This document shows, one piece after another, positions 4,398 to 64,000 of a stretch of DNA of 64,000 bases; position 1 is the first letter of the stretch, and every line of letters begins with the position of its first letter. Where the stretch lies: contig JAGCLD010000034.1 of the NCBI GenBank assembly GCA_017647145.1, forward strand, positions 28,838 through 92,837, written 5' to 3'. The notes beneath the pieces are model-generated. The model searched no databases and was not told the DNA's origin. It saw only the letters and a list, made by a program, of their open reading frames with translations. The position numbers and the translations under genes are program-made. This DNA comes from Paludibacteraceae bacterium. Lineage in GTDB: Bacteria > Bacteroidota > Bacteroidia > Bacteroidales > Paludibacteraceae.

Positions 4398-4639
4398 GTT
4401 TCTACAAATGTTAAGGGTTGTTTCTTATGTTTGTTTTATGTGTGAAAGGCATCTCATGCCTCACAAGTTACAAATATACAACATATTTGCCAATTATCCT
4501 CATTTCTGAGAAAAAAATGCCATTTATGCTCGATAAAAACATCCAAATACTCCTCTCTCTGCGGAGTAACCTACCGCAGGCACACGCCATTTGCGTCAGC
4601 AAATCACATCTATATATTATAAATCCAATAGGGCAACGA

Positions 4640-4743
4640 GTATCCTGTTATCCTCGGGACCACTCCGGGACCACTCCGGGACCACTCCGGGACCATTAGG
4701 TAGGAATTAGGTAGAATCAAGGTGGCTTTTAGGGCACTCTGTA
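4640..4743 (-). repeat. 11-bp-period modular tandem array, locus A (GGACCACTCCG x3 plus degenerate units)
   Basis: Read directly: GGGACCACTCC at 4656, 4667 and 4678, then GGGACCATTAG, GTAGGAATTAG, GTAGAATCAAG and GTGGCTTTTAG in register. The reverse complement gives TTCCTAC units followed by GTGGTCCCG units, as in locus B. Confidence 0.95.
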
Positions 4744-6188: not shown

Positions 6189-7427
6189 ATGAAAAAACTA
6201 TTATGCATAATTCTCTTAGTGTGTGGACTACTCAGCACGCATGCACAAGAGAAAACTGGCTACCCATACTCTGAATGGGATTATGCAAAAGAGATATTGA
6301 TGCACACACCGGGCGAAGAACTGTTTGATGGAGTAATTCATCCATATGCGGGTCTTTTTGAGTATTATTTTGATGTAGATGCTGCGGCTGAAGAACATAG
6401 AGGGTATATCAGAGCCCTCGAAAATAATGGAATCAAAGTGCACACGGTAAAGGAATTGCTCAATCAAGTTCCTATCAAAAAATTGCGTCAATGTGCAATG
6501 AAAGCCTTAAAATATGACGCAAAAAATATGACTGACATAAGCAGTGAGAAATCGGAAAAATATCGACAATTTGTCATTGCTCAAATGTCACGTGCTGACC
6601 TTATTAGATGCATATTGCTGCGCCCTACTGTAAGTTTATACAAATCGGACTTGAACACTGGTTTTGAAGCGGTATATACGCATTCGCCACTCATGAATCT
6701 ATATTTCACACGCGACCAAAGTATCACTACGCCACGTGGACATATAATCAGCTTCATGAATTCTACACAGCGTGCATGCGAAACAGAAATAATATCACTC
6801 TGCTATGAACAACTTGGCGTAAAACCCATCCTCTCTATTACAGGTGACGGAAGATTGGAAGGTGGAGACTATTTGAGAGGAGGTACTATATCTTACATTG
6901 GTTGCGGTATGCGCACCAATATGGAGGCTATTAAGCAAATAATGGAGGCGGATGCGTTTGGCCATGATACCATTGCGGTGGTAAATGACCATAAATGGTG
7001 GCAGATGCAGATGCACCTAGACACTTATTTTAACATAATAGATAAGGATTTGTGTACATTGGTAGAGAGTCGATACTATGCCAAACAGGGAGATCCTGAA
7101 TGGGTCACTGTAGATATTTATACGCGAAAAAAGGGTGAAAAAGAATACCACCTCACAAGGAAAGGGCTGTCTTTCTTGGACTTCTTGAAAGAAAGGGGAT
7201 TTAAGATTATACCTATATCACAAAAGGATGAGTTGCATTATGCGAATAATTTCTTGACAATTGCTCCTCGTCATATTCTGGCTGTGGGTAATCAGTCTAA
7301 ACAACTGCAACAACTGTTTGATAAGCATGGAGTTAAAGTGGAATGGATACCACTTGAAACACTGATTAAAGGCTATGGAGCAGCACACTGCATGACTCAA
7401 GTGATGAAGGTGAAATTGACAAAATAA
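6189..7427 (+). CDS. Arginine deiminase / amidinotransferase-superfamily protein with a signal peptide
   Basis: Start refined to MKKLLCIILLVCGLLSTHAQ. ADI-like blocks FTRDQ, LEGGD, MHLDTYFN and a C-terminal GAAHCMTQ carrying the catalytic Cys. Confidence 0.7.
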   Translation: MKKLLCIILLVCGLLSTHAQEKTGYPYSEWDYAKEILMHTPGEELFDGVIHPYAGLFEYYFDVDAAAEEHRGYIRALENNGIKVHTVKELLNQVPIKKLRQCAMKALKYDAKNMTDISSEKSEKYRQFVIAQMSRADLIRCILLRPTVSLYKSDLNTGFEAVYTHSPLMNLYFTRDQSITTPRGHIISFMNSTQRACETEIISLCYEQLGVKPILSITGDGRLEGGDYLRGGTISYIGCGMRTNMEAIKQIMEADAFGHDTIAVVNDHKWWQMQMHLDTYFNIIDKDLCTLVESRYYAKQGDPEWVTVDIYTRKKGEKEYHLTRKGLSFLDFLKERGFKIIPISQKDELHYANNFLTIAPRHILAVGNQSKQLQQLFDKHGVKVEWIPLETLIKGYGAAHCMTQVMKVKLTK

Positions 7428-7609
7428 ATAATTGGGGATTTTAGAAAATAATAACCATAAGAAAAGTAGGAATGATTGCTCGTTGAGCGATGTCAGCGCA
7501 CGAATCTACTAATATTAACAATAAACAAAAACTTCTGATGGTGAGTCTTATTTGCGCTGGTTGGACTTATCTGAGGAAAAATCAATAAATCTTTATAAAA
7601 ATAAAAGGT

Positions 7610-8017
7610 ATGAAACGTGTTTTATTGTTAGCATTCTGTTGTTTATCTCTCTTGGGATGTGAGCCTAAGCCAGAACAACAGTACAATGAATTATTAGGTG
7701 ATTGGTATCTATATGCAGCTTATAAAGAGGGTAGTGATACGGATTTACTACCTATGGCTGAGTTTGTTGGATTTGGATGTATGAAAACATCGGTGCTGCA
7801 TGTCACTGAAGGCGAATTTATACTTGATAGTGATTGTGATTGGTTGGCATGCACGGGTACATATGTGCAAGAAGACTCAGTCATTAATGGAGTTAAAGAG
7901 GATGGAGAAAAACTGGTGTTTTATTTCAAACAAGGTGTACTTTCTACGATAAAAAACATTCCGACAATCGGAAATGTGGAAATGCGCTTCCAAAAGTTAG
8001 AGGAAAATATACAATAA
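7610..8017 (+). CDS. Small lipoprotein (hypothetical)
   Basis: Lipobox LLGC. 135 aa. Confidence 0.5.
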   Translation: MKRVLLLAFCCLSLLGCEPKPEQQYNELLGDWYLYAAYKEGSDTDLLPMAEFVGFGCMKTSVLHVTEGEFILDSDCDWLACTGTYVQEDSVINGVKEDGEKLVFYFKQGVLSTIKNIPTIGNVEMRFQKLEENIQ

Positions 8018-13272: not shown

Positions 13273-13399
13273 GTGCAAACGTACTGAAGACGCAAACATA
13301 AGTTTGCTTAATTTTGCTTTGCTGTTACTTTCTTTGTCTTCTTAGTGATCTTATTATTGGTGTGCGGTAAATGTAATATTTAGGTGTCTTGATTTGGTG

Positions 13400-13509
13400 T
13401 TGTTCTTATCTTCTTCCTATCTTCTTCCTATCTAGTTCCTATCTAGTTCCTATCTGTTTTGTATCTATATCCTACGTAGTGGTCCCGAGGTGGTCGCGAG
13501 ATGGTCCCG
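13400..13509 (+). repeat. 11-bp-period modular tandem array, locus B
   Basis: In register: TTCTTCCTATC x2, TAGTTCCTATC x2, TGTTTTGTATC, TATATCCTACG, TAGTGGTCCCG, AGGTGGTCGCG, AGATGGTCCCG. Confidence 0.95.
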
Positions 13510-13532
13510 GTGATGCTTGCTGTTTTGTTGGT

Positions 13533-22358: not shown

Positions 22359-22479
22359 GTTTTATCCTGTATAGTTCTTATGTATGTCCTATCTTTATCC
22401 TATCTTTATCCTACGAGTATCCTACGTGTATCCTACGTGTATCCTACGTGTATCCTACGTGTATCCTACGTGTGTGTTA
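22359..22479 (+). repeat. 11-bp-period modular tandem array, locus C
   Basis: In register: TGTATGTCCTA, TCTTTATCCTA x2, CGAGTATCCTA, CGTGTATCCTA x4, CGTGTGTGTTA. Confidence 0.95.
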
Positions 22480-22555
22480 TGTGTGTTGGATGGTGTGTAA
22501 TAGGGTTTGGTGTATAGTTTTTTCTGTTTCTCTTGTGTGATTGTAAAAAAACTTA

Positions 22556-33020: not shown

Positions 33021-33075
33021 CTTATCCTTGCTGAATAGCCTACTAATAGCCTACTAATAACCTACTAGGGTCAGG
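33021..33075 (+). repeat. 11-bp-period tandem array, locus D (short)
   Basis: CTGAATAGCCTA, CTAATAGCCTA, CTAATAACCTA and CTAGGGTCAGG, followed by a G/T-rich tail to about 33140. Confidence 0.85.
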
Positions 33076-33189
33076 AGGTTTGCGTGTGTGAGAAGTTTGT
33101 GAAATCCGTTGTGAGATGCGGAGGCGCAGGTTGTGAAATGTAGATTAGTAGTGGTTAGAAGTTGTTTTGTGGGATAGTAATATGTTTTT

Positions 33190-49415: not shown

Positions 49416-50270
49416 TTATTTTACATCTTGAACAAGGCGGACAAACCCCCTTTTTGAAGTGCTATTGAACATACCACACCCAGCGTAACTCGCATCAAAT
49501 TCGAAGTAATAAGCATATACATGTGGAGAATATTTTCCTTTTAAAGTTGATGACCAATAATATCCCTCCGAGTTTTCATTTACATAACTATACATATTAT
49601 CTTCTGTAACTGGTAAAAAGATTGCACCCGATTCCTCTAACACAAGCCAATTTTCTAATGTTATTATTTGATGCTCTGCATAATCTTCTTCACTATGCCC
49701 AACAGCAACCCCACGTTTGAATGATACATCACTTGGACAAGTCCAATTATCTGGTAATAGGATAAATCCATTCATTCCATCTATTTGTGCCACAGAACAC
49801 AGACTATCTGCATTTTTGCGTCCCTCTTTACCATCTGTTAGATAATTCCATTCTTCATTTGTCAATGTACGCCATGTGTTAGGTTTATCATTACCAATCT
49901 GATTGATTCCCCAATCTACAAAGTTAACAAATGCGGTGTCTGGACTAAAAATATCAGTAGAAACTTTAGTAGGACAATTTCCTGTTCCCCAACAGAACAA
50001 ATCTATCCAACCATCGTATGTGGCGGATAGACTATCTTCTGGCACTTCCTTCATACGCTCTAACTGACTTTCTGCAAAACGCCATTCATTATTTAGAGGA
50101 TGATATTGCAAATTTCCATTTGAGAAAAGAATTTTCTTATGTTTAGAAACACTAAATGCCTTTGTCCTTTTTAAATCTGGATTGTTTAAATCTGGATTGT
50201 TCTGACTATCTGAACAACCCGCAAATACAAACGCCATTAATAGGATGGCTAAATTATAAAACTTTTTCAT
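49416..50270 (-). CDS. Lipoprotein with a FISUMP/DUF1566-like domain
   Basis: Lipobox FAGC. The WRTLTNEEWNYL, GYYWSST and C-terminal RGFVRLVQDV pattern resembles that of 63127..63858. Confidence 0.5.
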   Translation of the reverse strand: MKKFYNLAILLMAFVFAGCSDSQNNPDLNNPDLKRTKAFSVSKHKKILFSNGNLQYHPLNNEWRFAESQLERMKEVPEDSLSATYDGWIDLFCWGTGNCPTKVSTDIFSPDTAFVNFVDWGINQIGNDKPNTWRTLTNEEWNYLTDGKEGRKNADSLCSVAQIDGMNGFILLPDNWTCPSDVSFKRGVAVGHSEEDYAEHQIITLENWLVLEESGAIFLPVTEDNMYSYVNENSEGYYWSSTLKGKYSPHVYAYYFEFDASYAGCGMFNSTSKRGFVRLVQDVK

Positions 50271-50338
50271 TGTTTATAAAGTTTTGTGGGAAGTCGGCTC
50301 CAAACGGCCCGTTAGTATAAAAAGAAAGCGTGGAACCT

Positions 50339-50346
50339 TATCTTTG
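50339..50346 (+). promoter_or_regulatory. -7 promoter box TAtcTTTG driving the structured sRNA
   Basis: Exact motif 10 nt upstream of the first base of the closing helix. Confidence 0.55.
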
Positions 50347-50351
50347 CTTAT

Positions 50352-50545
50352 CCTTAGATTCGAGGTTCCTGCAAGACCCTACCAACAAGAATAAGCAATT
50401 AACGCCCACGCCGAATATGGAATGCCACCAAACAGAGCAATCCAACAAAGGATGCTCTGTGGCAGGATATACATATCCCAAAAGGGCGTTTACTGCAATC
50501 TTGCTTTGGGTTGGTGAAATTTTGCAGGATTTCGAATCTCCAAAA
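50352..50545 (+). ncRNA. Structured sRNA of about 190 nt with 6S-RNA-like rod architecture (candidate ssrS). The ends are approximate.
   Basis: Hand fold. An 18-bp closing helix pairs 50356-50374 with 50522-50539. Further helices are ACCAAC/GTTGGT, AAGCAA/TTGCTT and AACGCCC/GGGCGTT. There is a large central bubble of 16 nt against 20 nt, with a small hairpin GGATAT/ATATCC on the 3' side, and a terminal stem-loop at 50424-50463. G-U pairs form only on the plus strand. Confidence 0.5.
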
Positions 50546-50782
50546 CAAGCGCTAATAAACGCTTTTAATCATTATGTCTGCTTCTCCTGCCTCTTGGACA
50601 TAGCCATCGGCGTAGAGTTGCCTGACAAAGATAATGTATATCTTTGAAAAATGCAAACTCATCCACACTCTGCGCATAACGCGTCCGCGAAACCGTCTTG
50701 TGGCGAGTATAAGGAACTCCTATTTCTCACTTATCATCCCCGACAGTCAGAGATAGGAGTAAGCAAAGAAACACCAAGCCCA

Positions 50783-50912
50783 ATCGTTACCACACCGTTA
50801 CCATACCGTTACCATTAGATACAAAACAGATACCAACTAGATAGGAACTAGATAGGAACTAGGTGGGAACTAGATAGGAACTGGATAGGAACTAGGTAGG
50901 AACTAGATACCT
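50783..50912 (-). repeat. 11-bp-period modular tandem array, locus E (reverse orientation)
   Basis: Minus-strand read: TAGTTCCTA[CT]C-type units x6, TAGTTGGTATC, TGTTTTGTATC, then TAATGGTAACG, GTATGGTAACG and GTGTGGTAACG. Confidence 0.95.
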
Positions 50913-50982
50913 TTCAGTACTTTTATTTACACAAAGAGCCCGGCATTTTGCCGAGCTCTTTGTGGTTATGTTTTGTAGTGTG

Positions 50983-52269
50983 TTATGCTCCGAAGTTGTC
51001 GTACATAAGGTTTTCCTTTGGAACTCCAAGACTGTCAAGCATGTTTTCTACTGCTTTACTCATCGGACCAGGACCGCACATGTAGTATTCGATGTCTTCA
51101 GGTGCATCGTGGTCTTTTAAGTATGTTTCGTAAATCACATTGTGCACAAAGCCCGGGGTGTATTTCACGCCTGCTGCATCAGCCACAGGGTCTGGTCGGT
51201 CGAGCGCCAAGTGGAATGAGAAGTTAGGGAAATCTTTTTCTATTTGTAAGAAGTCTTCCAAATAGAATACTTCGTTCAAAGCGCGAGCTCCATAGAAGTA
51301 AGACATTTTTCTGTCAGTAGTTTTCAATGTCTTAGTTAAGTGCATGATTTGAGCACGTAAGGGAGCCATACCAGCACCACCACCAATCCACATCATTTCG
51401 TTTTTAGAATCAAAGATAGGGTGGAAGTCGCCATAAGGACCACTCATTGTTACTTTATCGCCCGGTTTGAGGGTGAAGATGTAGGAAGAAGCGATACCCG
51501 GCATTACGTCTTGGAATCCACCGCCTTGTTCTTTTGGTTTGAATGGAGGAGTAGCAATACGCACGGTAAGCATAATACGATCTCCTTCAGCAGGGTAGTT
51601 AGCCATAGAGTATGCACGTATGGTTTCTTCTGTATTTTCGCATTTTAAACCAAAGAGTCCGAAGTTTTGCCAAGCAGGAAGATATTCGTCACCAATGAGT
51701 GATTTGTCAATATCTTTGTCATAGTCCATTTTGTATTTAGGAATCTTGATTTGTGCATATGAACCCGGCACGAAATCCATGTGTTCTCCCGGAGGAAGCG
51801 CCACGATGAATTCTTTGATGAAGGTAGCAACGTTTTTGTTGCTGATTACTTCGCATTCCCATTCTTTAACGCCTAAAACAGATTCGTCAACTTTCAATGA
51901 TAAGTCACCTTTTACTTTTACTTGGCAACCCAAACGCCAGTGGTCTTTTACTTGTTTGCGACTGAAGTGTACCATTTCTGTTGGGAGGATTTCTCCACCT
52001 CCTTCAAGGACTTGGCATTTGCATTGTGCGCATGAACCTTTACCACCGCAAGCTGAAGGCAAGAATACGCCGGCATTAGCCATTGCGCTAAGTAATGAAC
52101 CTCCTGCGCCAACCTCCATTTCTTTCTCTCCATTGAGAAGGACTTTTACGTTGCCGGATGCTACTAAATATTTTTTAGCGACGAGCAGTATGACTACCAA
52201 CAGCAAGATTACCACTAAGAAGACAATCAAGCTGGATAGTATGCTCAATGAATTAATTTCTAATAACAT
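50983..52269 (-). CDS. nqrF: Na+-translocating NADH:quinone oxidoreductase subunit F
   Basis: N-terminal TM helix, 2Fe-2S CGGKGSCAQCKC, FAD block RAYSMAN, and an NADH-binding domain. Confidence 0.95.
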   Translation of the reverse strand: MLLEINSLSILSSLIVFLVVILLLVVILLVAKKYLVASGNVKVLLNGEKEMEVGAGGSLLSAMANAGVFLPSACGGKGSCAQCKCQVLEGGGEILPTEMVHFSRKQVKDHWRLGCQVKVKGDLSLKVDESVLGVKEWECEVISNKNVATFIKEFIVALPPGEHMDFVPGSYAQIKIPKYKMDYDKDIDKSLIGDEYLPAWQNFGLFGLKCENTEETIRAYSMANYPAEGDRIMLTVRIATPPFKPKEQGGGFQDVMPGIASSYIFTLKPGDKVTMSGPYGDFHPIFDSKNEMMWIGGGAGMAPLRAQIMHLTKTLKTTDRKMSYFYGARALNEVFYLEDFLQIEKDFPNFSFHLALDRPDPVADAAGVKYTPGFVHNVIYETYLKDHDAPEDIEYYMCGPGPMSKAVENMLDSLGVPKENLMYDNFGA

Positions 52270-52306
52270 ATTTTTGTGATTTTATGTTTACAGATAGTTT
52301 ATTTTA

Positions 52307-52951
52307 TTAGATTTCTAAGCCTGAGAAGCAGAGGAATGCCATTGCCATGAGGCCAACAACGATAAATGTGATTCCGAGTCCTTTGAGGGGTGCCGGAACA
52401 TCGTTGTATTCCATTTTTTCACGTATAGCAGCAAGTCCTACAATTGCCAGCATCCATCCGATTCCAGAACCGAGTGCGTAAGCCATAACGTCCAGCATAC
52501 TTGTGAGTGCTTTAGGGTCGGTTGGTTCAAGTCCCACGCGTTGTTGCATGAACAATGCTCCACCCATGATTGCGCAGTTTACAGCAATCAATGGCAGGAA
52601 GATACCTAATGAAGCATATAATGATGGAGAGAATTTTTCTACAATCATTTCCACTAATTGTACAATAGCAGCAATCACGGCGATGAAGAGGATGAAACTT
52701 AGATAGCTGAGGTCTAATGTAGCAAAGTCTTCGCTTATCCATTTAAGTGCACCTGCGCTTAATACTTTGGTTTCTAATAAATAGTTGACCGGAAGGGTGA
52801 TCATCAATACAAATGTTACTGCAACCCCTAATCCCAATGATGTTTTAACATTCTTGGATACGGCCAAGTAAGAACACATTCCAAGGAAGAATGCGAAAAT
52901 CATGTTGTCCACAAAGATGGATCGAACAAATAATGTTAATGCGTGTTCCAT
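52307..52951 (-). CDS. nqrE: Na+-NQR subunit E
   Basis: Polytopic membrane protein in nqr order, with a conserved Cys in a TM helix (AVNCAIMGG). Confidence 0.9.
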
Positions 52952-52964
52952 ATATCAATCCTCC

Positions 52965-53588
52965 TTATTTTTCTTGTAAATCTTTATTTAATGAACGATG
53001 AACCCAGATGATGCAGGCCACCAAGATAAGTGCCATAGAAGGCATCATCATTAAACCATTGTTGCTGTATCCGGCTTCGTAGAAGCAGTTAGGAATGACT
53101 TGGAAACCAAATAGTTTTCCACTTCCTAATAATTCGCGGAAGAATGCCACTGCGATTAAAATCCAAGCATAACCAATACCATTACCAATACCATCCAAGA
53201 AAGAATCCCATGGTTTGTTGCTCATAGCAAATGCTTCCAAACGTCCCATGAGGATACAGTTGGTAATAATTAATCCGATGTATACGGATAATTGTACGCT
53301 TACATCATAGGCGAAAGCTTTTAGGACTTCGCTCACAATGGTAACTACAGTCGCAACCACCACTAATTGTACAATGATACGCACACTGTTAGGAATGGTG
53401 TTGCGGAGTAAAGAAATAATTACGTTTGCCAATGCAACGATGATGGTAACGGAAAGTCCCATCACGATAGCCGGCTTTAATTCAACGGTTACCGCCAATG
53501 CAGAACAGATACCTAACACTTGCAGGATAACCGGATTATTCTTGTTCAATGGACCTAATAAAGTCTCTTTGAATTTGTCATTTTTCAT
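52965..53588 (-). CDS. nqrD: Na+-NQR subunit D
   Basis: Polytopic, NqrD/RnfE-like (GICSALAVT, ITNCILMGR). Confidence 0.9.
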   Translation of the reverse strand: MKNDKFKETLLGPLNKNNPVILQVLGICSALAVTVELKPAIVMGLSVTIIVALANVIISLLRNTIPNSVRIIVQLVVVATVVTIVSEVLKAFAYDVSVQLSVYIGLIITNCILMGRLEAFAMSNKPWDSFLDGIGNGIGYAWILIAVAFFRELLGSGKLFGFQVIPNCFYEAGYSNNGLMMMPSMALILVACIIWVHRSLNKDLQEK

Positions 53589-53606
53589 ATTTTTAGTCTC
53601 CTTTTC

Positions 53607-54488
53607 TTATTCTTCGGTAATTACCAATTCTTCAGTGGCTTCTATTGTTGCATTTTCAGCTTCTTGCGCAACTGATTTTACTAAAAATGGTTCGTATGGA
53701 GCGATGCTTGTTTGTAGCATGCTTTCTACACCTTTACTTGTGATGGTGCCACCTGAGATAGCATCAACTTGGTCTTGTCCTTCTGCTGATTGTCCCGCTT
53801 TCATAATGGCAATAGAAGCAAATTTACCATTTTGCATAATGTGTTTTCCAATGAATGGTTTACGGAATGCAGGCATAACAATATTTGCTCCCAAACCCGG
53901 TGTTTCACTTGCGTGTGAGAAGTACACTCCATTGATGGTGTTTCTGTCGTCATCAAGGGCAATGTATCCCCAGATGGCTCCCCAAAGACCTTTTCCGTAT
54001 AAAGGAATGATCCATTTGGTAGTTTGTTCAACTTCAGCCATGTAGATTACATATTCTCCCGCTTGTGGAGCATAGTTGAAGTCACTGACAGGGTCAAGGT
54101 CTTTGATGATTTCACCTGTTTCGTCCAAGATGTAGATGTGCTTGATGTTGTCAGCAAATAGTTGTGCTGCATCAGCTCCTTCTAATACGACAGCAGGAAG
54201 AGAAGAAAGTATTTGTTTCTTCTTGTCAAGTTCGATGTTAGCATTTTGTCTGCTTTTAAGGGCACCTGATGTGATAGATAAGAGCAATGCCACAATTACA
54301 ACAATGATGGTGGTGTAAACCATGATGTAGGCATTTGAATTTTTATTGATGCCTTTTTTCTTTTGTTCGCCACCTTCTATGAGTTCAAACTCAGATGCAG
54401 GTGCTTGGCAAACCGGACATTTCTCCGGAGCAGTAGCTCCTTCATGAATATATCCGCAAACTTTACATTTATATTTATTTGTAGCCAT
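53607..54488 (-). CDS. nqrC: Na+-NQR subunit C with an N-terminal rubredoxin-like CxxC...CxxC extension
   Basis: FMN attachment block ISGGTITSKG. The N-terminal YKCKVCGYIHEGATAPEKCPVCQAPASEF precedes the single TM helix. Confidence 0.85.
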   Translation of the reverse strand: MATNKYKCKVCGYIHEGATAPEKCPVCQAPASEFELIEGGEQKKKGINKNSNAYIMVYTTIIVVIVALLLSITSGALKSRQNANIELDKKKQILSSLPAVVLEGADAAQLFADNIKHIYILDETGEIIKDLDPVSDFNYAPQAGEYVIYMAEVEQTTKWIIPLYGKGLWGAIWGYIALDDDRNTINGVYFSHASETPGLGANIVMPAFRKPFIGKHIMQNGKFASIAIMKAGQSAEGQDQVDAISGGTITSKGVESMLQTSIAPYEPFLVKSVAQEAENATIEATEELVITEE

Positions 54489-54501
54489 AATATTCTTTCT
54501 T

Positions 54502-55704
54502 TTATTTAGTTGCGCGTTTCAGTCTTCGTTTAATGTTGGCTTGTACTACATAGTAGTCAATGAGGCATGCGAAGATATTCATTAATAGGATAGCCAACAT
54601 CATACCTTCCGGATATCCTGGATTCAATACTCTGACCACGACTGCGATTACACCAATCAAGAAGCCATAAATCCATTTTCCTGTTTCAGTACGTGCAGCG
54701 GTTACTGGGTCAGTAGCCATGAATACTGCACCAAATGCAAAACCACCTAATACTAAATGGTTGTACCAAGGCAGGTTAGCAATGGCAGTTTCAGGTCCCC
54801 AGAGGTTGAATGCTAATGCTGTGAGTGCACCTCCGGCAAATACAGAAAGAGTGATTTTCCAACTTGAGATACCAGTGACCATTAATAACATTCCTCCAAG
54901 AAGGATTGCCAATGTACATGTTTCTCCTACAGAACCAGGAATCAGTCCAAGGAATCCGTCTATGAATCCGATGTTATTGCCCAGTATGTCTGTGAATAGT
55001 GGTGTGCTCTCAGTGGCAGTTCCAACTTGTCCGAGTGGGGTAGCACCGGTGAATGTGTCAACTGTAGCATGTCCGTTGCTCCATCCCCATGTTCCTTGAG
55101 TTCTTACCCATACTTGGTCGCCTGACATAGCTGTCGGGTAAGCAAAGAAAAGGAATGCACGTGTGATTAATGCTACATTGAATATATTGTAGCCAGTTCC
55201 TCCAAATACTTCTTTAGCGAAGATTACAGCGAATGCTGTAGCCACTGCAACCATCCATAATGGAGTGTTGATAGGCACGATAAGCGGAATAAGAATACCG
55301 GTTACAAGAAAGCCTTCTGCAATTTCGTGTCCTTTGATTTGTGCTACTGTGAATTCAATTCCAAGCCCTACTACATAAGCTACGACTATGTATGGCAAGA
55401 CAGCCAGTGCTCCGAAGAAGAATGTGCTCCAGAAAGAGGCATCTTGTCCTATTGCAAGGAAGTGTTGATAACCTACGTTGTACATACCGAACAATAAGGC
55501 AGGGATCAAGGCAAGTACTACCATAATCATCGTGCGCTTAGAGTCGATGGCATCATGAATTTGTGTTCCTATGCGTTTGCTTGTGCTGTTAGGAACGAAT
55601 AAGAATGTTTCAAATCCGTCAAATACGGAATGGAACATACTCAATTTTCCGCCTTCTGAGAAGGTGGGCTTGAGCTTATCTACTATGTCTTTTAAAAATT
55701 TCAT
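54502..55704 (-). CDS. nqrB: Na+-NQR subunit B
   Basis: Polytopic, with FMN attachment block TFTGATPLG. Confidence 0.9.
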   Translation of the reverse strand: MKFLKDIVDKLKPTFSEGGKLSMFHSVFDGFETFLFVPNSTSKRIGTQIHDAIDSKRTMIMVVLALIPALLFGMYNVGYQHFLAIGQDASFWSTFFFGALAVLPYIVVAYVVGLGIEFTVAQIKGHEIAEGFLVTGILIPLIVPINTPLWMVAVATAFAVIFAKEVFGGTGYNIFNVALITRAFLFFAYPTAMSGDQVWVRTQGTWGWSNGHATVDTFTGATPLGQVGTATESTPLFTDILGNNIGFIDGFLGLIPGSVGETCTLAILLGGMLLMVTGISSWKITLSVFAGGALTALAFNLWGPETAIANLPWYNHLVLGGFAFGAVFMATDPVTAARTETGKWIYGFLIGVIAVVVRVLNPGYPEGMMLAILLMNIFACLIDYYVVQANIKRRLKRATK

Positions 55705-55724
55705 ATATCGTTCAATATTTGTCG

Positions 55725-57092
55725 TTATTCTAATTCAGATTTCATGTTGTCCAACGCTTTGCGAACTATGGCTTGTAATGGTAGTTTTGATGTGCAAACA
55801 AATTCACAAAGAGCTACATCTTCAGGAGCAATTTCATAAGCACCCAATGCTTCCATCTTGTCTATGTTACCCGCGATCATGGCTTTGATGAGGTATTCTA
55901 CATAGATGTCCATAGGCAATACTTTTTCATATTCACCTGACATAATCATAGCGCGTTGTCCTCCTAATATACGTGCGTCAAAGTTGAATGTCATTTTTGG
56001 GCATACTTTGCGAAGTATTTTTGTTAGAAAGGTGTTGCTGTTGCTGAACTTGTCGAAGCGAGGCATAATCCAACCGAATAACTCATGTGTGTCGGCTCCT
56101 TCTTCCAATACGGTGATTTGATTGGTGTAAGGTGATAAGACTTCGTCTTCGTTGATTTGGTGTCCTGACAAGACATTGCCACATACTAAGCGTAAGGCTA
56201 TTTCTTTGTGAATGTTACCGCGCAGAATGTTGCTAGCTGTGCTACCATATTTTACGCGATAGTATTGTGGTTCGTGCACTTCAGGTCCTGTTAATGCAAC
56301 TACTTTGGTCATATCAACAATGCCTTCGCAGAGGAATTTACCGATAATAAGCATGTCTTGCAGGTTGATGGTCCACACAACTTCGCCTTTGTTGACTGCG
56401 TCTATATGGTGGATTTGCACGCCTACGTTTCCTGCAGGGTGTGCTCCTTCGAATTCGGTGAAGTGTGCATGTTGCAACATTCTGAATTCGGTAGATGTGC
56501 TTCCTGCACGTAATCCTATTTCTACGTCTTTACCGCTGATGATGCTAAATGCTTTTACAGCTGCTTGTAGGTAGTTAGCCTTTCCTTGTGCTACAAACTC
56601 GTAGTTAGGTGCAAGAGGTGCTGTGTCGAATGTGGAAACAAAGACTTTCTTAGGTGCAATAGCCGGATTGGCAATTACGTCATAAGGGCGTTGTTTTACA
56701 CACCACCACAGACCACTCTCTAACAGGGCTTGTTTGAGATTGTCTGCGCTTGCGTTTGCAAGGTTGATTTTTTCAAATGTTTTGTACACTTGTTCTTTGT
56801 CTGCACGGATATCGATGCTGAGCACTTTACGGCGTTCTCCGCGATTGACAGCAATGATTTCCCCGCTTACAGGGGCAACAAATTGCATTTCAGAACATTG
56901 TTTATTGTAAAATACGGGTGAACCTGCTTCTACTCGTTCACCTTCTTTCACCACCACTTTGGGGGTGATGCCCGCAAAATGATCAGGCACTACGGAAAAG
57001 ATTTCGCTCTGAGGATTACTTCCGATGACTTCGGCAGCTTTTCCGTTGATGGCAATGTCTAATCCGCGTTTAAGTTTAATTTTTTGGATCAT
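55725..57092 (-). CDS. nqrA: Na+-NQR subunit A
   Basis: 455-aa soluble subunit at the head of the nqrABCDEF order. Confidence 0.9.
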   Translation of the reverse strand: MIQKIKLKRGLDIAINGKAAEVIGSNPQSEIFSVVPDHFAGITPKVVVKEGERVEAGSPVFYNKQCSEMQFVAPVSGEIIAVNRGERRKVLSIDIRADKEQVYKTFEKINLANASADNLKQALLESGLWWCVKQRPYDVIANPAIAPKKVFVSTFDTAPLAPNYEFVAQGKANYLQAAVKAFSIISGKDVEIGLRAGSTSTEFRMLQHAHFTEFEGAHPAGNVGVQIHHIDAVNKGEVVWTINLQDMLIIGKFLCEGIVDMTKVVALTGPEVHEPQYYRVKYGSTASNILRGNIHKEIALRLVCGNVLSGHQINEDEVLSPYTNQITVLEEGADTHELFGWIMPRFDKFSNSNTFLTKILRKVCPKMTFNFDARILGGQRAMIMSGEYEKVLPMDIYVEYLIKAMIAGNIDKMEALGAYEIAPEDVALCEFVCTSKLPLQAIVRKALDNMKSELE

Positions 57093-57240
57093 AGTGATTA
57101 ATTAATCTTATGCTGAATTCTATTGTTTTTGTGCTTTTCTCGGTGTTAGTTTTTTGCTTTATATTTCGTTTCTTTTTTTTGATGGTAATCCTTATTGTGG
57201 GTTCCTATTGAACGTAATTCTCGCAATAAACTTAACTTTG

Positions 57241-57248
57241 CAAAAGTA
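57241..57248 (-). promoter_or_regulatory. -7 promoter box (TActTTTG on the minus strand) for the nqr operon
   Basis: CAAAAGTA on the plus strand, about 150 nt upstream of the nqrA start. Confidence 0.45.
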
Positions 57249-57327
57249 CATCATTTATTTCTAATAAAGAAATCTATCTTTAATAATTTGTATTTTTTTG
57301 TTATTGCTGTTCGGTGAAAGAGCTATT

Positions 57328-57467
57328 GTGGTATCTTCTTCCTATCTAGTTCCTATCTGTTTTGTATCTTTATCCTACGTGTATCCTACGTGTATCCTAC
57401 GTGTATCCTACGTGTATCCTACGTGTATCCTACGTGTATCCTACGTGTATCCTACGTGTCTGGTAGG
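57328..57467 (+). repeat. 11-bp-period modular tandem array, locus F (longest copy)
   Basis: In register from 57336: TTCTTCCTATC, TAGTTCCTATC, TGTTTTGTATC, TTTATCCTACG, TGTATCCTACG x7, TGTCTGGTAGG. Confidence 0.95.
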
Positions 57468-57677
57468 TAAAAATTTACAAAGTTAGGGAATTTTGGGGAT
57501 AGGATGCTCACGGAGTGAGGTGGAGGCACGGGTGCAGATGTGTTTGTCGGTGCAAAGGGTGTGTGCCTGCGGCAGGGTGTGTCGCGGGGCGAGGTGGAAG
57601 GGTTATGGGTTAAAGGGATTTTTTGTGGTGTATCATGTATTTAGAGAAGATGATTTGTTTTTTTTAAAAATATAAAT

Positions 57678-57685
57678 TATATTTG
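57678..57685 (+). promoter_or_regulatory. -7 promoter box TAtaTTTG at the head of the long leader
   Basis: Exact TAnnTTTG motif preceded by an AT-rich tract. Confidence 0.5.
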
Positions 57686-57690
57686 CAATG

Positions 57691-58029
57691 TGAATCCACG
57701 TCGGGGATATGTCTATTATAAACGGGGTGGGTGAGCGGACATAATGAAAGGCGTTTATTGACGCTCTGTTCTGATGCTCTGAAACTTCGCAACTTTCATA
57801 TTTGTATTCAGGACTTAGCAACGGTAGATGTCCTACGGGATATAGGATTATCCCTCTTGTGCTCATTCGGGTACGCATGTTACGTATATAGATACGTGCA
57901 TGTTTTGTGTGTAAGCATAAGAGAATATTTTATATTCGGCGTGGGCTTCGCGTTGTCGGTCTAATACAAAGGGCAATGCGAAGGCCTAAGAGCATGGAAC
58001 GACAACAGTCGGACTCCACGCTTTTTTTA
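57691..58029 (+). ncRNA. Structured leader or sRNA of about 340 nt ending in a terminator, upstream of the caspase-like operon
   Basis: Several hand-found hairpins: TATGTC/GACATA, GGGATA/TATCCC, and an 11-bp CATG-TACGTAT/ATACGT-GCATG. The 3' composite helix is GGCGTGG...CCACGC plus GTTGTCG/CGACAAC, followed by T7 at 58022-58028, 55 nt before the ATG at 58084. Confidence 0.35.
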
Positions 58030-58083
58030 TGTGTATATGTGAAAACTAATAAGTTATAATCAACCATTAAACAAATTAATCGT

Positions 58084-58755
58084 ATGAAAAAGGTATTATT
58101 CGTGGCGATGGCATTGCTGGTAGCATGCAGCGCAAGTTTTGCACAAGATGCAAAAGAAATTATGAAAGAGCGTCAAGTAACTGCTAAATTAGCTAAAAAA
58201 GAACTTAATGCTAAAGTAGATAAAACAACAAAGAAGGAGGCAAAACGCCTTAAAAGAGAAGGTTGGGTAGTCAGCCCCGGTGCATTGCCATTAGAGAAAC
58301 AGTTGGAGCGTTCGTATTTGATGGAGTTTGAGTATGACGAAAATCTCTTCCCAAAATACATTATGGCAAACGCTCAATCTATCGGCGAGAATTATGATGC
58401 AGCCAAGACTGCAGTAACTTCATTGGCTATTACTAACCTTGCAGGTCAAATTCAAACAGAAGTAACTGCTCTCATTGAAAATACGGTGGCAAACAGACAA
58501 TTAGCAGCAGAAGATGCAGCAAGTATCACAGAGACCGTCATGGCTAGCAAAAACTTAATCAGCCAATCTATCGGCCGGGTGATTACCGTAGTAGAGTGCT
58601 ACCGCATTTTGGATAACAAGAACCGCGAAGTAATGGTCCGCATTGCTTATAATGGCGAAATGGCAAAAGAAGCAGCAAAGAAAGCTGTACGTCAAGAATT
58701 AGAGAAGAAGGGCGATAAATTGCACGAACAATTGGATCAAATACTTGGTCTCTAA
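58084..58755 (+). CDS. Lipoprotein, LPP20-like
   Basis: Lipobox LLVAC, a Lys-rich coiled N-terminal segment, and an alpha/beta domain with an A..A...A..L pattern. The family call is from memory. Confidence 0.5.
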   Translation: MKKVLFVAMALLVACSASFAQDAKEIMKERQVTAKLAKKELNAKVDKTTKKEAKRLKREGWVVSPGALPLEKQLERSYLMEFEYDENLFPKYIMANAQSIGENYDAAKTAVTSLAITNLAGQIQTEVTALIENTVANRQLAAEDAASITETVMASKNLISQSIGRVITVVECYRILDNKNREVMVRIAYNGEMAKEAAKKAVRQELEKKGDKLHEQLDQILGL

Positions 58756-63858: not shown

Positions 63859-64000
63859 TAAAATTTCGCAAGGCGCGTATGCGCTCAGTGAAATTTGTGA
63901 GCATAAATCTTCTCGATTTTGTCCGAGGCTTTGCCGTGACAAAAGCAAGTTGTTTTTTTAGGAGGATAAGTGGTGGGTGTGGGAGGCACGGGTGCGGATG

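Follow-up and report, generated by a model that had tools for sequence, protein, structure and literature searches.

A dispersed, ordered, non-coding element of 11-bp tandem units in Paludibacteraceae, with sister families across gut Bacteroidales

Introduction

Mosaic intergenic elements that combine a few module types in a set order are represented by the BIME/REP elements of enterobacteria and the BOX elements of pneumococci. BIME and BOX exist in many copies near housekeeping genes, the number of internal boxB modules of BOX varies, and the REP and BOX modules (35-60 bp) act through hairpins. Shorter units form the STRR of cyanobacteria, a short tandem heptamer family. Here we analyse a stretch of 64,000 nucleotides from a Paludibacteraceae bacterium (contig JAGCLD010000034.1 of assembly GCA_017647145.1, positions 28,838 to 92,837; hereafter the window), in which arrays of 11-bp units recur at six loci, A to F. 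The closest described analogue is BrickBuilt, a minisatellite and miniature inverted-repeat transposable element of Porphyromonas gingivalis whose 23-nt units abut in tandem, without spacers, between a leader and a tail, and which is present in 19 intergenic copies (Klein et al. 2015, PMC4596501). The likeness is one of design and does not imply sequence homology.

Both elements are found dispersed in intergenic regions of Bacteroidales, with spacer-less direct repeats held between a leader or head and a tail (PMC4596501), and in both the copy number varies by locus and strain and unit length is not divisible by three. BrickBuilt, on the other hand, has a single 23-nt unit type, whereas the present element has 11-nt units of several types in set order. 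Its leaders and tails reach 285 and 318 nt (PMC4596501), as opposed to a head of about 35-55 nt and a tail of 11-22 nt, and it carries IS5-like terminal inverted repeats (GAGACCTTTGCA), none of which lie near the 11-bp arrays. These four differences (unit length, ordered unit types, shorter ends and no IS5-like inverted repeats) make BrickBuilt an analogue of the element and not a member of the same family.

The 11-bp arrays are also unlike REP and BOX, being direct repeats without significant folding and with no RAYT-type transposase in view. Repeats of constant size and variable sequence have been described by Subirana and Messeguer, mainly in Firmicutes but in some further groups too, with units of 20-21 (up to 23) nt and of 52 nt; they are non-coding and species-specific, and have been discussed in terms of protein polymerisation or small RNAs (PMC8161180). 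Like these repeats, the 11-bp arrays comprise several families of equal length and different sequence per genome and are non-coding; unlike them, they form an 11-nt class in Bacteroidales (neither this unit length nor Bacteroidetes is mentioned there) and are ordered mosaics with a head and a tail. The TAACTGA heptamers of Beggiatoaceae, Cyanobacteria and some Bacteroidetes lie a few nucleotides upstream of start codons in fixed orientation (PMC4679880). Our element shares with the heptamer families, STRR included, the tandem amplification of short units at many intergenic sites and a patchy phylogenetic distribution, but its arrays are mosaics of period 11, whereas heptamer arrays have period 7 and one unit type each. 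The period of the arrays is exactly 11, and units of this length are also found in parC of plasmid R1, where two sets of five tandem 11-bp direct repeats flank a promoter and one ParR dimer binds each unit, along one face of the helix (PMC2241845). While parC is one plasmid site beside parR and parM, the 11-bp element occupies six sites in 64 kb of chromosome, with several unit types and no par genes.

No match to the arrays was found in Rfam 15 (only tRNA-Arg reached its gathering score in the whole window, and the region 50200-58200 gave no match at E<=1) or, by BLAST, in 72,556 plasmids and 50,697 phage records. The searched literature, whose coverage was incomplete, yielded no description of an 11-bp repeat family in Bacteroidales. 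A first-pass annotation, made from the letters of the window, had not recognised the arrays as a described repeat family; this stands as far as those searches go, but not for the architecture, since BrickBuilt has the same design of leader, units and tail. The 11-bp elements seem undescribed; the kind of element, a mosaic intergenic repeat, is already known.

Results

One ordered grammar in a single 11-bp register

At locus F the plus strand reads, from 57336 and in perfect 11-nt register, TTCTTCCTATC, TAGTTCCTATC, TGTTTTGTATC, TTTATCCTACG, seven copies of TGTATCCTACG and TGTCTGGTAGG, in agreement to the base with the first-pass annotation. Tandem Repeats Finder placed period-11 arrays at six loci of the window, and no other tandem array that it reported there comes near them in length or score. 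A self-match scan over periods 5-24 gave strong arrays at 11 (five segments) and at its double, 22, and at no other period; periods 22 and 33 are mere multiples, produced by alternating unit variants. The degenerate three-unit pattern WTCCTAYS-NNN matched 14 times, against 0.00 matches expected from 100 dinucleotide-preserving shuffles, and the arrays are therefore far beyond chance. At least five unit types are present in the window, every one of 11 bp.

All six loci sit between open reading frames or the tRNA gene, as had been claimed, and they fill six of the nine intergenic regions of at least 300 bp. The arrays are indeed non-coding. A CRISPR array, with 23-47 bp repeats and unique spacers, was ruled out, as it had been at first sight, by the direct abutment of the 11-bp units. 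A phase-variable contingency locus was ruled out as well, the arrays lying outside reading frames and never between promoter elements.

The element grammar was drawn from the window copies, from metagenome copies found in a scan for the junction, and from relatives found in a scan of a genome collection (copies outside the window are cited below by L number). The order is fixed and keeps a single 11-bp register: head, L units, junction, M units, R units, tail and sometimes a G-rich module. About 11 of 38 copies have the head (ATTGGTGTCCG GTAAAAG.... ATTATNGTATC TTGATGGTATC) in full, and the others have a shorter form of it. The head leads into one to ten L units (T[AT][GC]TTCCTAYC; TAGTTCCTATC and TTCCTATC type), a single junction TGTTTTGTATC, zero to eight M units (TNTATCCTACG; TGTATCCTACG and ATCCTACG type) and zero to five R units (TGGTCCCG/TGGTCGCG and/or TGGTAACG). 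The tail, G.GATG(C/A)T(T/A)G(C/G) (GTGATGCTTGC), is followed in about a third of copies by the G-rich module with GTGTGCCTGCGGCAGG. In the window, the 16-mer TATCTGTTTTGTATCT recurs at 13451-13466 and 57354-57369 on the plus strand and at 50817-50832 on the minus strand, that is, in loci B, F and E. These are the three archetype loci; the three related ones, A, C and D, are subsets or variants of the archetype modules.

The metagenome scan for the junction gave 33 loci, about 28 of them true elements and four chance matches without arrays. The flanks of the metagenome copies resemble neither one another nor the window. In the broader set of arrays of all families, 60 of the 66 with scorable flanks lie outside open reading frames. 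Locus B and L148 are 81% identical from head to tail (13349-13524), with no similarity beyond. L109 is an F-type composite, 89% identical over 164 bp, with the G-rich module and with unrelated genes alongside, and in L150 a D-type array stands back to back with an archetype head. A shared grammar between unrelated flanks shows this to be a dispersed repeat family and not a set of local microsatellites, and the common head, module order, junction and tail support the earlier proposal of homology between the loci, each a copy of the same modular element. Furthermore, every unit fits the skeleton T..(A/T)T(G/C)(G/C)T(A/C)(C/T)(C/G), which suggests common descent.

Two archetype elements that are 88-96% identical to those of the window (L035 and L109) lie on contig JAZOSF010000082.1. 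Although this contig bears the label of a Lachnospiraceae metagenome-assembled genome, the two elements on it indicate that it is probably a mis-binned Paludibacteraceae contig.

Unit number varies in 11-bp steps and elements turn over rapidly

The NqrA protein encoded in the window is identical to one listed by NCBI under a 'Paludibacteraceae bacterium' metagenome-assembled genome, and independent contigs with these loci derive from ruminant metagenomes. One of them carries locus F with eight ATCCTACG units (L001) together with locus C (L129), and L124, from a different sample, has locus B as in the window. Since the same arrays occur with the same flanks in independent assemblies of other samples, they are real and not artefacts. 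An assembly or sequencing artefact might be suspected from the many short-read contigs that stop within an array (L003, L128, L130-L132; short-read and Logan contigs), but we consider it next to negligible: the arrays and their flanks agree across independent samples and assemblers, k=141 contigs included, and the variants are consistent in three assemblies. Contigs ending in arrays indicate instead that the elements recurrently break contigs in rumen metagenome assemblies, a practical cause of fragmented metagenome-assembled genomes.

The copy number of each module differs by locus, as first noticed in the window, and it also differs between strains. Locus B has 2+2 L units here and 1+1 in three independent assemblies (L125-L127), which show a few single-nucleotide differences in the flanks too; collapse during assembly is no explanation for arrays of so few units, and the difference is firm. 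Locus F has eight M units here and in L001, five in L002 (a count that could result from short-read collapse) and two in a relative with 93% NqrA identity (three assemblies). The arrays change length in 11-bp steps, and differences in unit number could serve as strain markers.

Turnover between relatives is rapid. In the relative with 93% NqrA identity, a palindrome-rich repeat stands in place of the L units and junction of F, its left half. In another, with 85% NqrA identity, the site after nqrF is occupied by a head with units in single copy (tctatcttcttcctatatagtggtaacg) and the region upstream of nqrA by a different 11-mer array, GTAATCCTTCG x3, while in one with 73% NqrA identity no arrays were found at either nqr site.

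A second repeat family was seen in close relatives, made of REP-like palindromes (AGGACGCTCGC...GCGAGCTACAGGACGG and TACCTCGCTACGCCCCCTAACCCAGGGCGACAGTGC) located in L138, L139 and L141 (upstream of nqrA), in L134 and in the right flank of L143. Because these palindromes adjoin or replace parts of 11-bp elements, the intergenic sites collect several repeat families.

Origin and spread of the element

Taken together, the element is dispersed, ordered and non-coding, its whole-unit copy number varies between strains, and it has sister families across gut Bacteroidales. As to its nature, we give roughly even odds (about 0.5) to the six loci being copies of a non-autonomous, non-coding mosaic repeat, comparable to BrickBuilt, BIME and BOX, that lengthens and shortens in whole units. 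That whole elements were copied to many intergenic sites is shown by the ordered grammar amid unrelated flanks. Their blocks differ between strains by whole 11-bp units, and slipped-strand mispairing is the presumable cause of this growth and shrinkage. Since the units share one skeleton and never leave the register, we infer a single ancestral 11-mer; with whole-unit changes only, its sequence would drift while its length stayed fixed, as in the 'library' model of satellites, so that the period would be inherited and the sequence would not. The copies would persist as apparently inert DNA, for which our models predict almost straight duplex and single strands without structure. Each unit gained or lost would move the flanking sites about one helical turn farther apart or closer together, and any effect on neighbouring promoters would be a side effect of this variable spacing and not a demonstrated function. 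In favour of this explanation are the grammar and register common to three window loci and about 28 metagenome copies, the L109 composite beside other genes, the whole-unit differences and rapid turnover, the shared unit skeleton, the housekeeping neighbours, the variable distance to promoter boxes, the ordinary gene orientations, folding and curvature, the 11-bp period kept by unrelated units, and the precedent of BrickBuilt.

Several observations weigh against this explanation. We found no inverted repeats linking the head and tail regions, no BrickBuilt or ISPg terminal repeat motifs near the arrays (up to two mismatches allowed), and no visible target-site duplications at the borders of B and L148 or in aligned flanks, there being no empty site to compare. 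Likewise, no transposase, integrase, Rep or Par was present among the 30 window proteins scanned, every array neighbour included. With none of these signatures found, the spreading step is left without a mechanism. Part of the evidence for length change, the five-unit count of L002, may come from short-read collapse. Fifty base pairs of the F tail are 100% conserved in the relative with 93% NqrA identity. The archetype element is antisense to the genes in 10 of 13 co-directional settings (26 vs 15 in the broader set), and the tail often lies just 24-85 bp past a stop codon, a position that neutral insertion alone would not predict. The conserved module order, the F tail and the retention of the element after nqrF at 85% identity could reflect selection, and descent alone may fall short of explaining why 11-mers that look unrelated share a strict period in distant Bacteroidota. 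Two functional alternatives, a protein platform and a terminator or insulator, stay in play because of this period, the conservation of order and tail, the biased orientation and the location soon after stop codons; we weigh them below with the evidence on each.

A different origin would be that the arrays are iterons, a centromere-like site or the transposon-end sites of an integrated plasmid, phage or integrative and conjugative element. Direct repeats of 11 bp are the classic parC iterons (PMC2241845), modular 11-bp arrays exist in the viral contigs L004, L008, L016 and L018, and arrays flank a VapE-like gene in L031. However, the six loci lie within 64 kb amid core housekeeping genes, the 30 proteins scanned include no rep, par, integrase or transposase product, and the plasmid and phage collections gave no match, all of which makes such an origin very improbable.

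Sister families and the constancy of the period

A degenerate-pattern scan of the genome collection returned at least 101 loci, about 83 of them from Bacteroidota among those listed, mostly gut and rumen Bacteroidales, in which sister families are common. Among the matches listed, two metagenome-assembled genomes hold at least 17 and at least 10 loci, and the isolate KHT7 at least four. Each lineage has its own array flavour, for example (TATATCCTACG)n or (AAGTTCCTATG)n, and its own conserved ends.

In 693 kb of the listed loci, arrays that had not been selected by the pattern numbered 33 at period 11 as opposed to 6 and 5 at periods 10 and 12, and the units of those 33 arrays are unrelated in sequence. 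The period is therefore constant and the sequence variable, which extends the 'constant length, variable sequence' puzzle to an 11-bp class and to a new phylum. Other common periods were 7 (89 arrays, the commonest class) and 8 (19 arrays). A shared TAC/GTA core was not significant among the 11-mer families (13 of the 33 unselected units vs about 29% expected).

A fixed period of this length is compatible with a phased protein landing pad, one of the hypotheses of the first-pass annotation. Each unit would present one turn of negatively supercoiled DNA, and a nucleoid or regulatory protein, or a separate one for each module, would polymerise along the array; so coated, like the 11-bp parC iterons under ParR, the array would have an architectural or insulating role upstream of promoters. 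The strict 11-bp register is kept from head to tail through different modules, period 11 is favoured over 10 and 12 whatever the sequence, and module order and tail are conserved. The TAnnTTTG boxes lie about 30-220 bp downstream of the arrays, which often separate divergent promoters and are predicted to be straight and unstructured, as would suit a binding rod. Precedents are provided by the ParR dimer on each 11-bp iteron (PMC2241845) and by the protein polymerisation discussed for constant-size repeats (PMC8161180), and iteron-like sets of 3x11 bp surround the VapE-like gene of L031. Nevertheless, no candidate protein gene lies beside any array, the neighbours being all housekeeping genes, and at least five unit types per genome, with dozens in relatives, would need many proteins or one reader of shape only. 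Identical units and copy-number variation are expected from slippage without selection, the spacing to promoters is not fixed, and close relatives lose or replace arrays. We therefore hold the landing pad as a tentative option, on the unlikely side. If it were true, the 11-nt, 20-21-nt and 52-nt repeats and BrickBuilt (23 nt) would follow one principle, whole helical turns per unit; unit lengths of 11, 21 and 52 correspond to about 1, 2 and 5 turns.

Among the sister families, that of JAZNHG01 (SGB_1770, a G+C-rich Bacteroidales metagenome-assembled genome; L053, L057, L088, L105 and others) consists of (ACCATCCTACC)n arrays with a conserved end, ATTTTAACATTTCGG, often flanked by inverted heptamer arrays, (GAACACT)n ... 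(AGTGTTC)n. Another is carried by the cultured rumen isolate Bacteroidales bacterium KHT7 (FNBQ01; L026, L051, L098, L117) and by L118, where degenerate units shade into (TTCTTCCTACC)n and end in a conserved hairpin, ACGAACAATTTCTGGCGAAATTGTTCGT. The existence of this cultured carrier opens the question to experiment, and the ordered, compact element offers a test object for selfish DNA vs protein scaffold vs transcription boundary.

Modular 11-bp arrays are also found in IMG/VR viral contigs (L004, L008, L016/L021 and L018); the blocks of L004 and L008 are GTACTCCATAG x3, GTATTCCTATG, GGATTCCTATG and GGTTATCTATAG. In L031, from the Prevotellaceae metagenome-assembled genome UBA1716, a VapE-like P-loop gene (6300-7502, minus strand) lies between inverted repeats of about 110 bp at 6190-6300 and 7780-7890, each holding three tandem AACATCCTACC units, one inverted and one distal unit. 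This layout resembles that of iterons or transposon ends. L044 and L059, from the same genome, are single copies.

Composition, gene orientation and transcription

The arrays had been described as strongly strand-asymmetric, pyrimidine-rich and G-poor on one strand. This proved true of the left (TTCCTATC) block only: the L units contain 29.9% C and 6.9% G and are predicted to be unstructured, so that a rut-like composition is reached in this block alone and in the sense direction, while the right blocks and the 3' flank are rich in G. A rut site is some 60-80 nt of C-rich RNA that is poor in G and lacks structure. The 50 nt 3' of the array contain 33% G and 12% C, a skew that is gone by 250-300 nt. 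Judging by composition, the first RNA made from either side would be C-rich and G-poor. Folding z-scores for both strands of B, E and F range from -0.86 to +2.07, that is, no significant structure, and REP-like hairpins or a structured RNA were ruled out on these values.

Boxes of the Bacteroidetes promoter type, TAnnTTTG, flank the arrays at distances of 31-218 bp and point away from the head in 27 cases vs 13 in the opposite direction. No fixed distance or phase was found between arrays and boxes, the gap from head to box being variable. Over all families, the flanking genes are antisense co-directional in 26 cases, sense co-directional in 15, divergent in 12 and convergent in 7; the background of long intergenic regions has 86 co-directional, 29 divergent and 15 convergent. 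A preference for divergent regions was accordingly rejected, the orientation classes being like those of all long intergenic regions. The orientation bias is modest, marginally significant and inseparable from replication direction. Intergenic regions of both gene orientations have a plus-strand G>C skew, and a C>G skew past stop codons was rejected as a sign of Rho termination, because the skew tracks the DNA strand and not the direction of the gene.

These data bear on a second function, that of a bidirectional transcription stop cassette that would insulate neighbouring units. C-rich, G-poor RNA would load Rho, and the distal G- or purine-rich RNA would slow RNA polymerase; going by the sequence, sense transcription would supply this loading RNA from the L units, and antisense transcription from the complement of the R units and the G-rich 3' flank. 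The composition switch from the L units (C 30%, G 7%) to the 50 nt on the 3' side (G 33%, C 12%) fits this proposal, as do the lack of stable RNA structure, the position of the tail, often 24-85 bp past a stop codon with no hairpin terminator between (B and D), the orientation bias (10:3 and 26:15), and the fact that B, D and E each lie past the end of a gene and before the next promoter. Against it, divergent genes surround five of the 20 fully flanked copies as well as loci A, C and F of the window, so that no gene reads into them, and E comes after a good intrinsic terminator. The plus-strand G>C skew, present in both gene orientations, may reflect replication and not transcription, and the orientation bias, besides being marginally significant, is confounded with replication direction. 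A role at the RNA level would tolerate periods of about 9-15 and would not demand a strict 11.

The first-pass suggestions of a rut-like tract and of a boundary element between transcription units are weak candidates. The C-rich L strand is antisense to both genes in 10 of the 13 co-directional settings and, in the window, is sense to genes at E only; the position between transcription units fits a boundary element, yet it is expected of any long intergenic insert. We consider the stop cassette unlikely. The broader proposal takes the strictness of the 11-bp register as the mark of a DNA-level system that is widespread among gut and rumen Bacteroidota but unrecognised, and in which phased protein platforms or two-way Rho-loading and pause cassettes would insulate transcription units and be tuned by strain-variable copy number; it is speculative and less probable than not by a wide measure.

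Intrinsically curved DNA, with a small bend summed at each helical turn, would also take advantage of a period near the helical repeat in arrays located upstream of promoters. We computed curvature with two dinucleotide models, for which phased A-tract controls behaved as expected. The arrays fall at ordinary values, from the 19th to the 82nd percentile of the window, and as eightfold repeats most units are straighter than their own shuffles (Bolshoy model, 12 of 14; Olson model, 11 of 14). Eight copies of TGTATCCTACG have a predicted bend of 2.1 degrees, vs 29.9 +/- 15.3 for shuffled sequences. Curvature as the function of the arrays is thus highly improbable.

The loci of the window

The genes next to the arrays are housekeeping genes (ffh, uvrA, mutY, nqrA-F, tRNA-Arg and a TonB-dependent receptor). 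Loci E and F bracket the nqrA-F operon (50983-57092, minus strand) in inverted orientation, and the elements on its two sides form the inverted repeats I6 and I10-I14.

Locus F lies on the plus strand. Its head (57303-57335; ATTGCTGTTCG GTGAAAGAGCT ATTGTGGTATC) is in 11-bp register with the array, and is followed by the L units TTCTTCCTATC and TAGTTCCTATC (57336-57357), the single-copy junction TGTTTTGTATC (57358-57368) and eight M units (57369-57456; TTTATCCTACG and seven TGTATCCTACG), for which Tandem Repeats Finder reports 8.1 copies with 100% matches at 57371-57459. The end unit TGTCTGGTAGG, with an inverted CCTAC, and the conserved tail TAAAAATTTACAAAGTTAGGGAATTTTGGGGATAGGA occupy 57457-57515; this tail recurs unchanged in L138, L139 and L141, and L109 and L157 have it in conserved form. 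The G-rich module (GGAGGCACGGGTGC ... GTGTGCCTGCGGCAGG ... GTGTCGCGGGGCGAGG) completes the locus at 57516-57625.

A -7-like TAACTTTG box lies on the minus strand at 57478-57486, beside the end of array F, and points into the array toward nqrA. The box is kept in L138, L139, L141, L109 and L157 (with G for T in L157). If this predicted promoter is active, array F would be the 5' end of an alternative nqr transcript.

The whole of locus B, located between ffh and the gene of a TonB-dependent receptor, spans 13349-13524 on the plus strand, bounds that are given by the 81% match to L148 and its unrelated flanks. In register, it comprises the head (13356-13410), 2+2 L units (13411-13454), the junction (13455-13465), one M unit (13466-13476), R units of TGGTCCCG/TGGTCGCG (13477-13509) and the tail GTGATGCTTGC (13510-13520), and Tandem Repeats Finder reports it as two segments (13403-13455 and 13479-13509). 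Locus E (50763-50916, minus strand) lies 67 bp past the nqrF stop codon and its hairpin terminator. It has seven L units (50905-50829), the junction (50828-50818, in register) and three TGGTAACG units (50817-50785), and Tandem Repeats Finder reports the segments 50835-50909 and 50785-50815.

Among the related loci, A (array 4641-4727, minus strand; Tandem Repeats Finder 4655-4695) lies between genes for a DUF2147 protein and a cupin and has two CCTACC units (4727-4696), four TGGTCCCGGAG units (4695-4652) and an end unit. The core of its G-rich module (4552-4603, minus strand) is 3' of the array and forms inverted repeat I9 with 57543-57594. Locus C (22364-22484, plus strand; Tandem Repeats Finder 22387-22473), between mutY and tRNA-Arg, about 100 bp upstream of the tRNA-Arg promoter, contains degenerate lead units, ATCCTATC units and six ATCCTACG units. 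Locus D (33023-33077, plus strand; Tandem Repeats Finder 33034-33067) consists of the lead unit TATCCTTGCTG and (AATAGCCTACT)x3, 115 bp past the stop codon of its neighbour, uvrA.

The G-rich, C-poor module (GGAGGCACGGGTGC ... GTGTGCCTGCGGCAGG ... GGGG/GGG runs) mostly follows an array tail. In the window it comes after F and A, and it recurs in L035, L109, L151 and L160; at the window end it starts with no array in front (63960-64000, plus strand) and runs off the stretch. It contains an 11-bp palindrome, CCTGCGGCAGG, and its several G-runs might, by their sequence, form a candidate G-quadruplex.

Non-coding RNA-like units near the arrays

At 57681-58058 (plus strand) and 50292-50639 (minus strand) lie two non-coding paralogues of about 340-370 nt with 73% identity, so that elements E and F each have one such unit on the outer side of the nqrA-F bracket. 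Both units have a separate TAnnTTTG promoter and, at the 3' end, a long hairpin with a T-run behind it, and the proteins encoded downstream are unrelated. Relatives are present in L096, L162, L159 (cut off at the array tail), L123 and L105. An RNAalifold consensus of four copies has 59 pairs, 21 of them with compensatory changes, and a search of Rfam gave no match to the units even at E<=1. On this sequence evidence, the units are a candidate new family of structured non-coding RNA in Paludibacteraceae, often located within a few hundred base pairs of arrays. The promoter region of the E-side unit (50640-50660) is a 21-bp palindrome, CAAAGATATACATTATCTTTG, with a TAnnTTTG box on each strand, which may be a bidirectional promoter or an operator.

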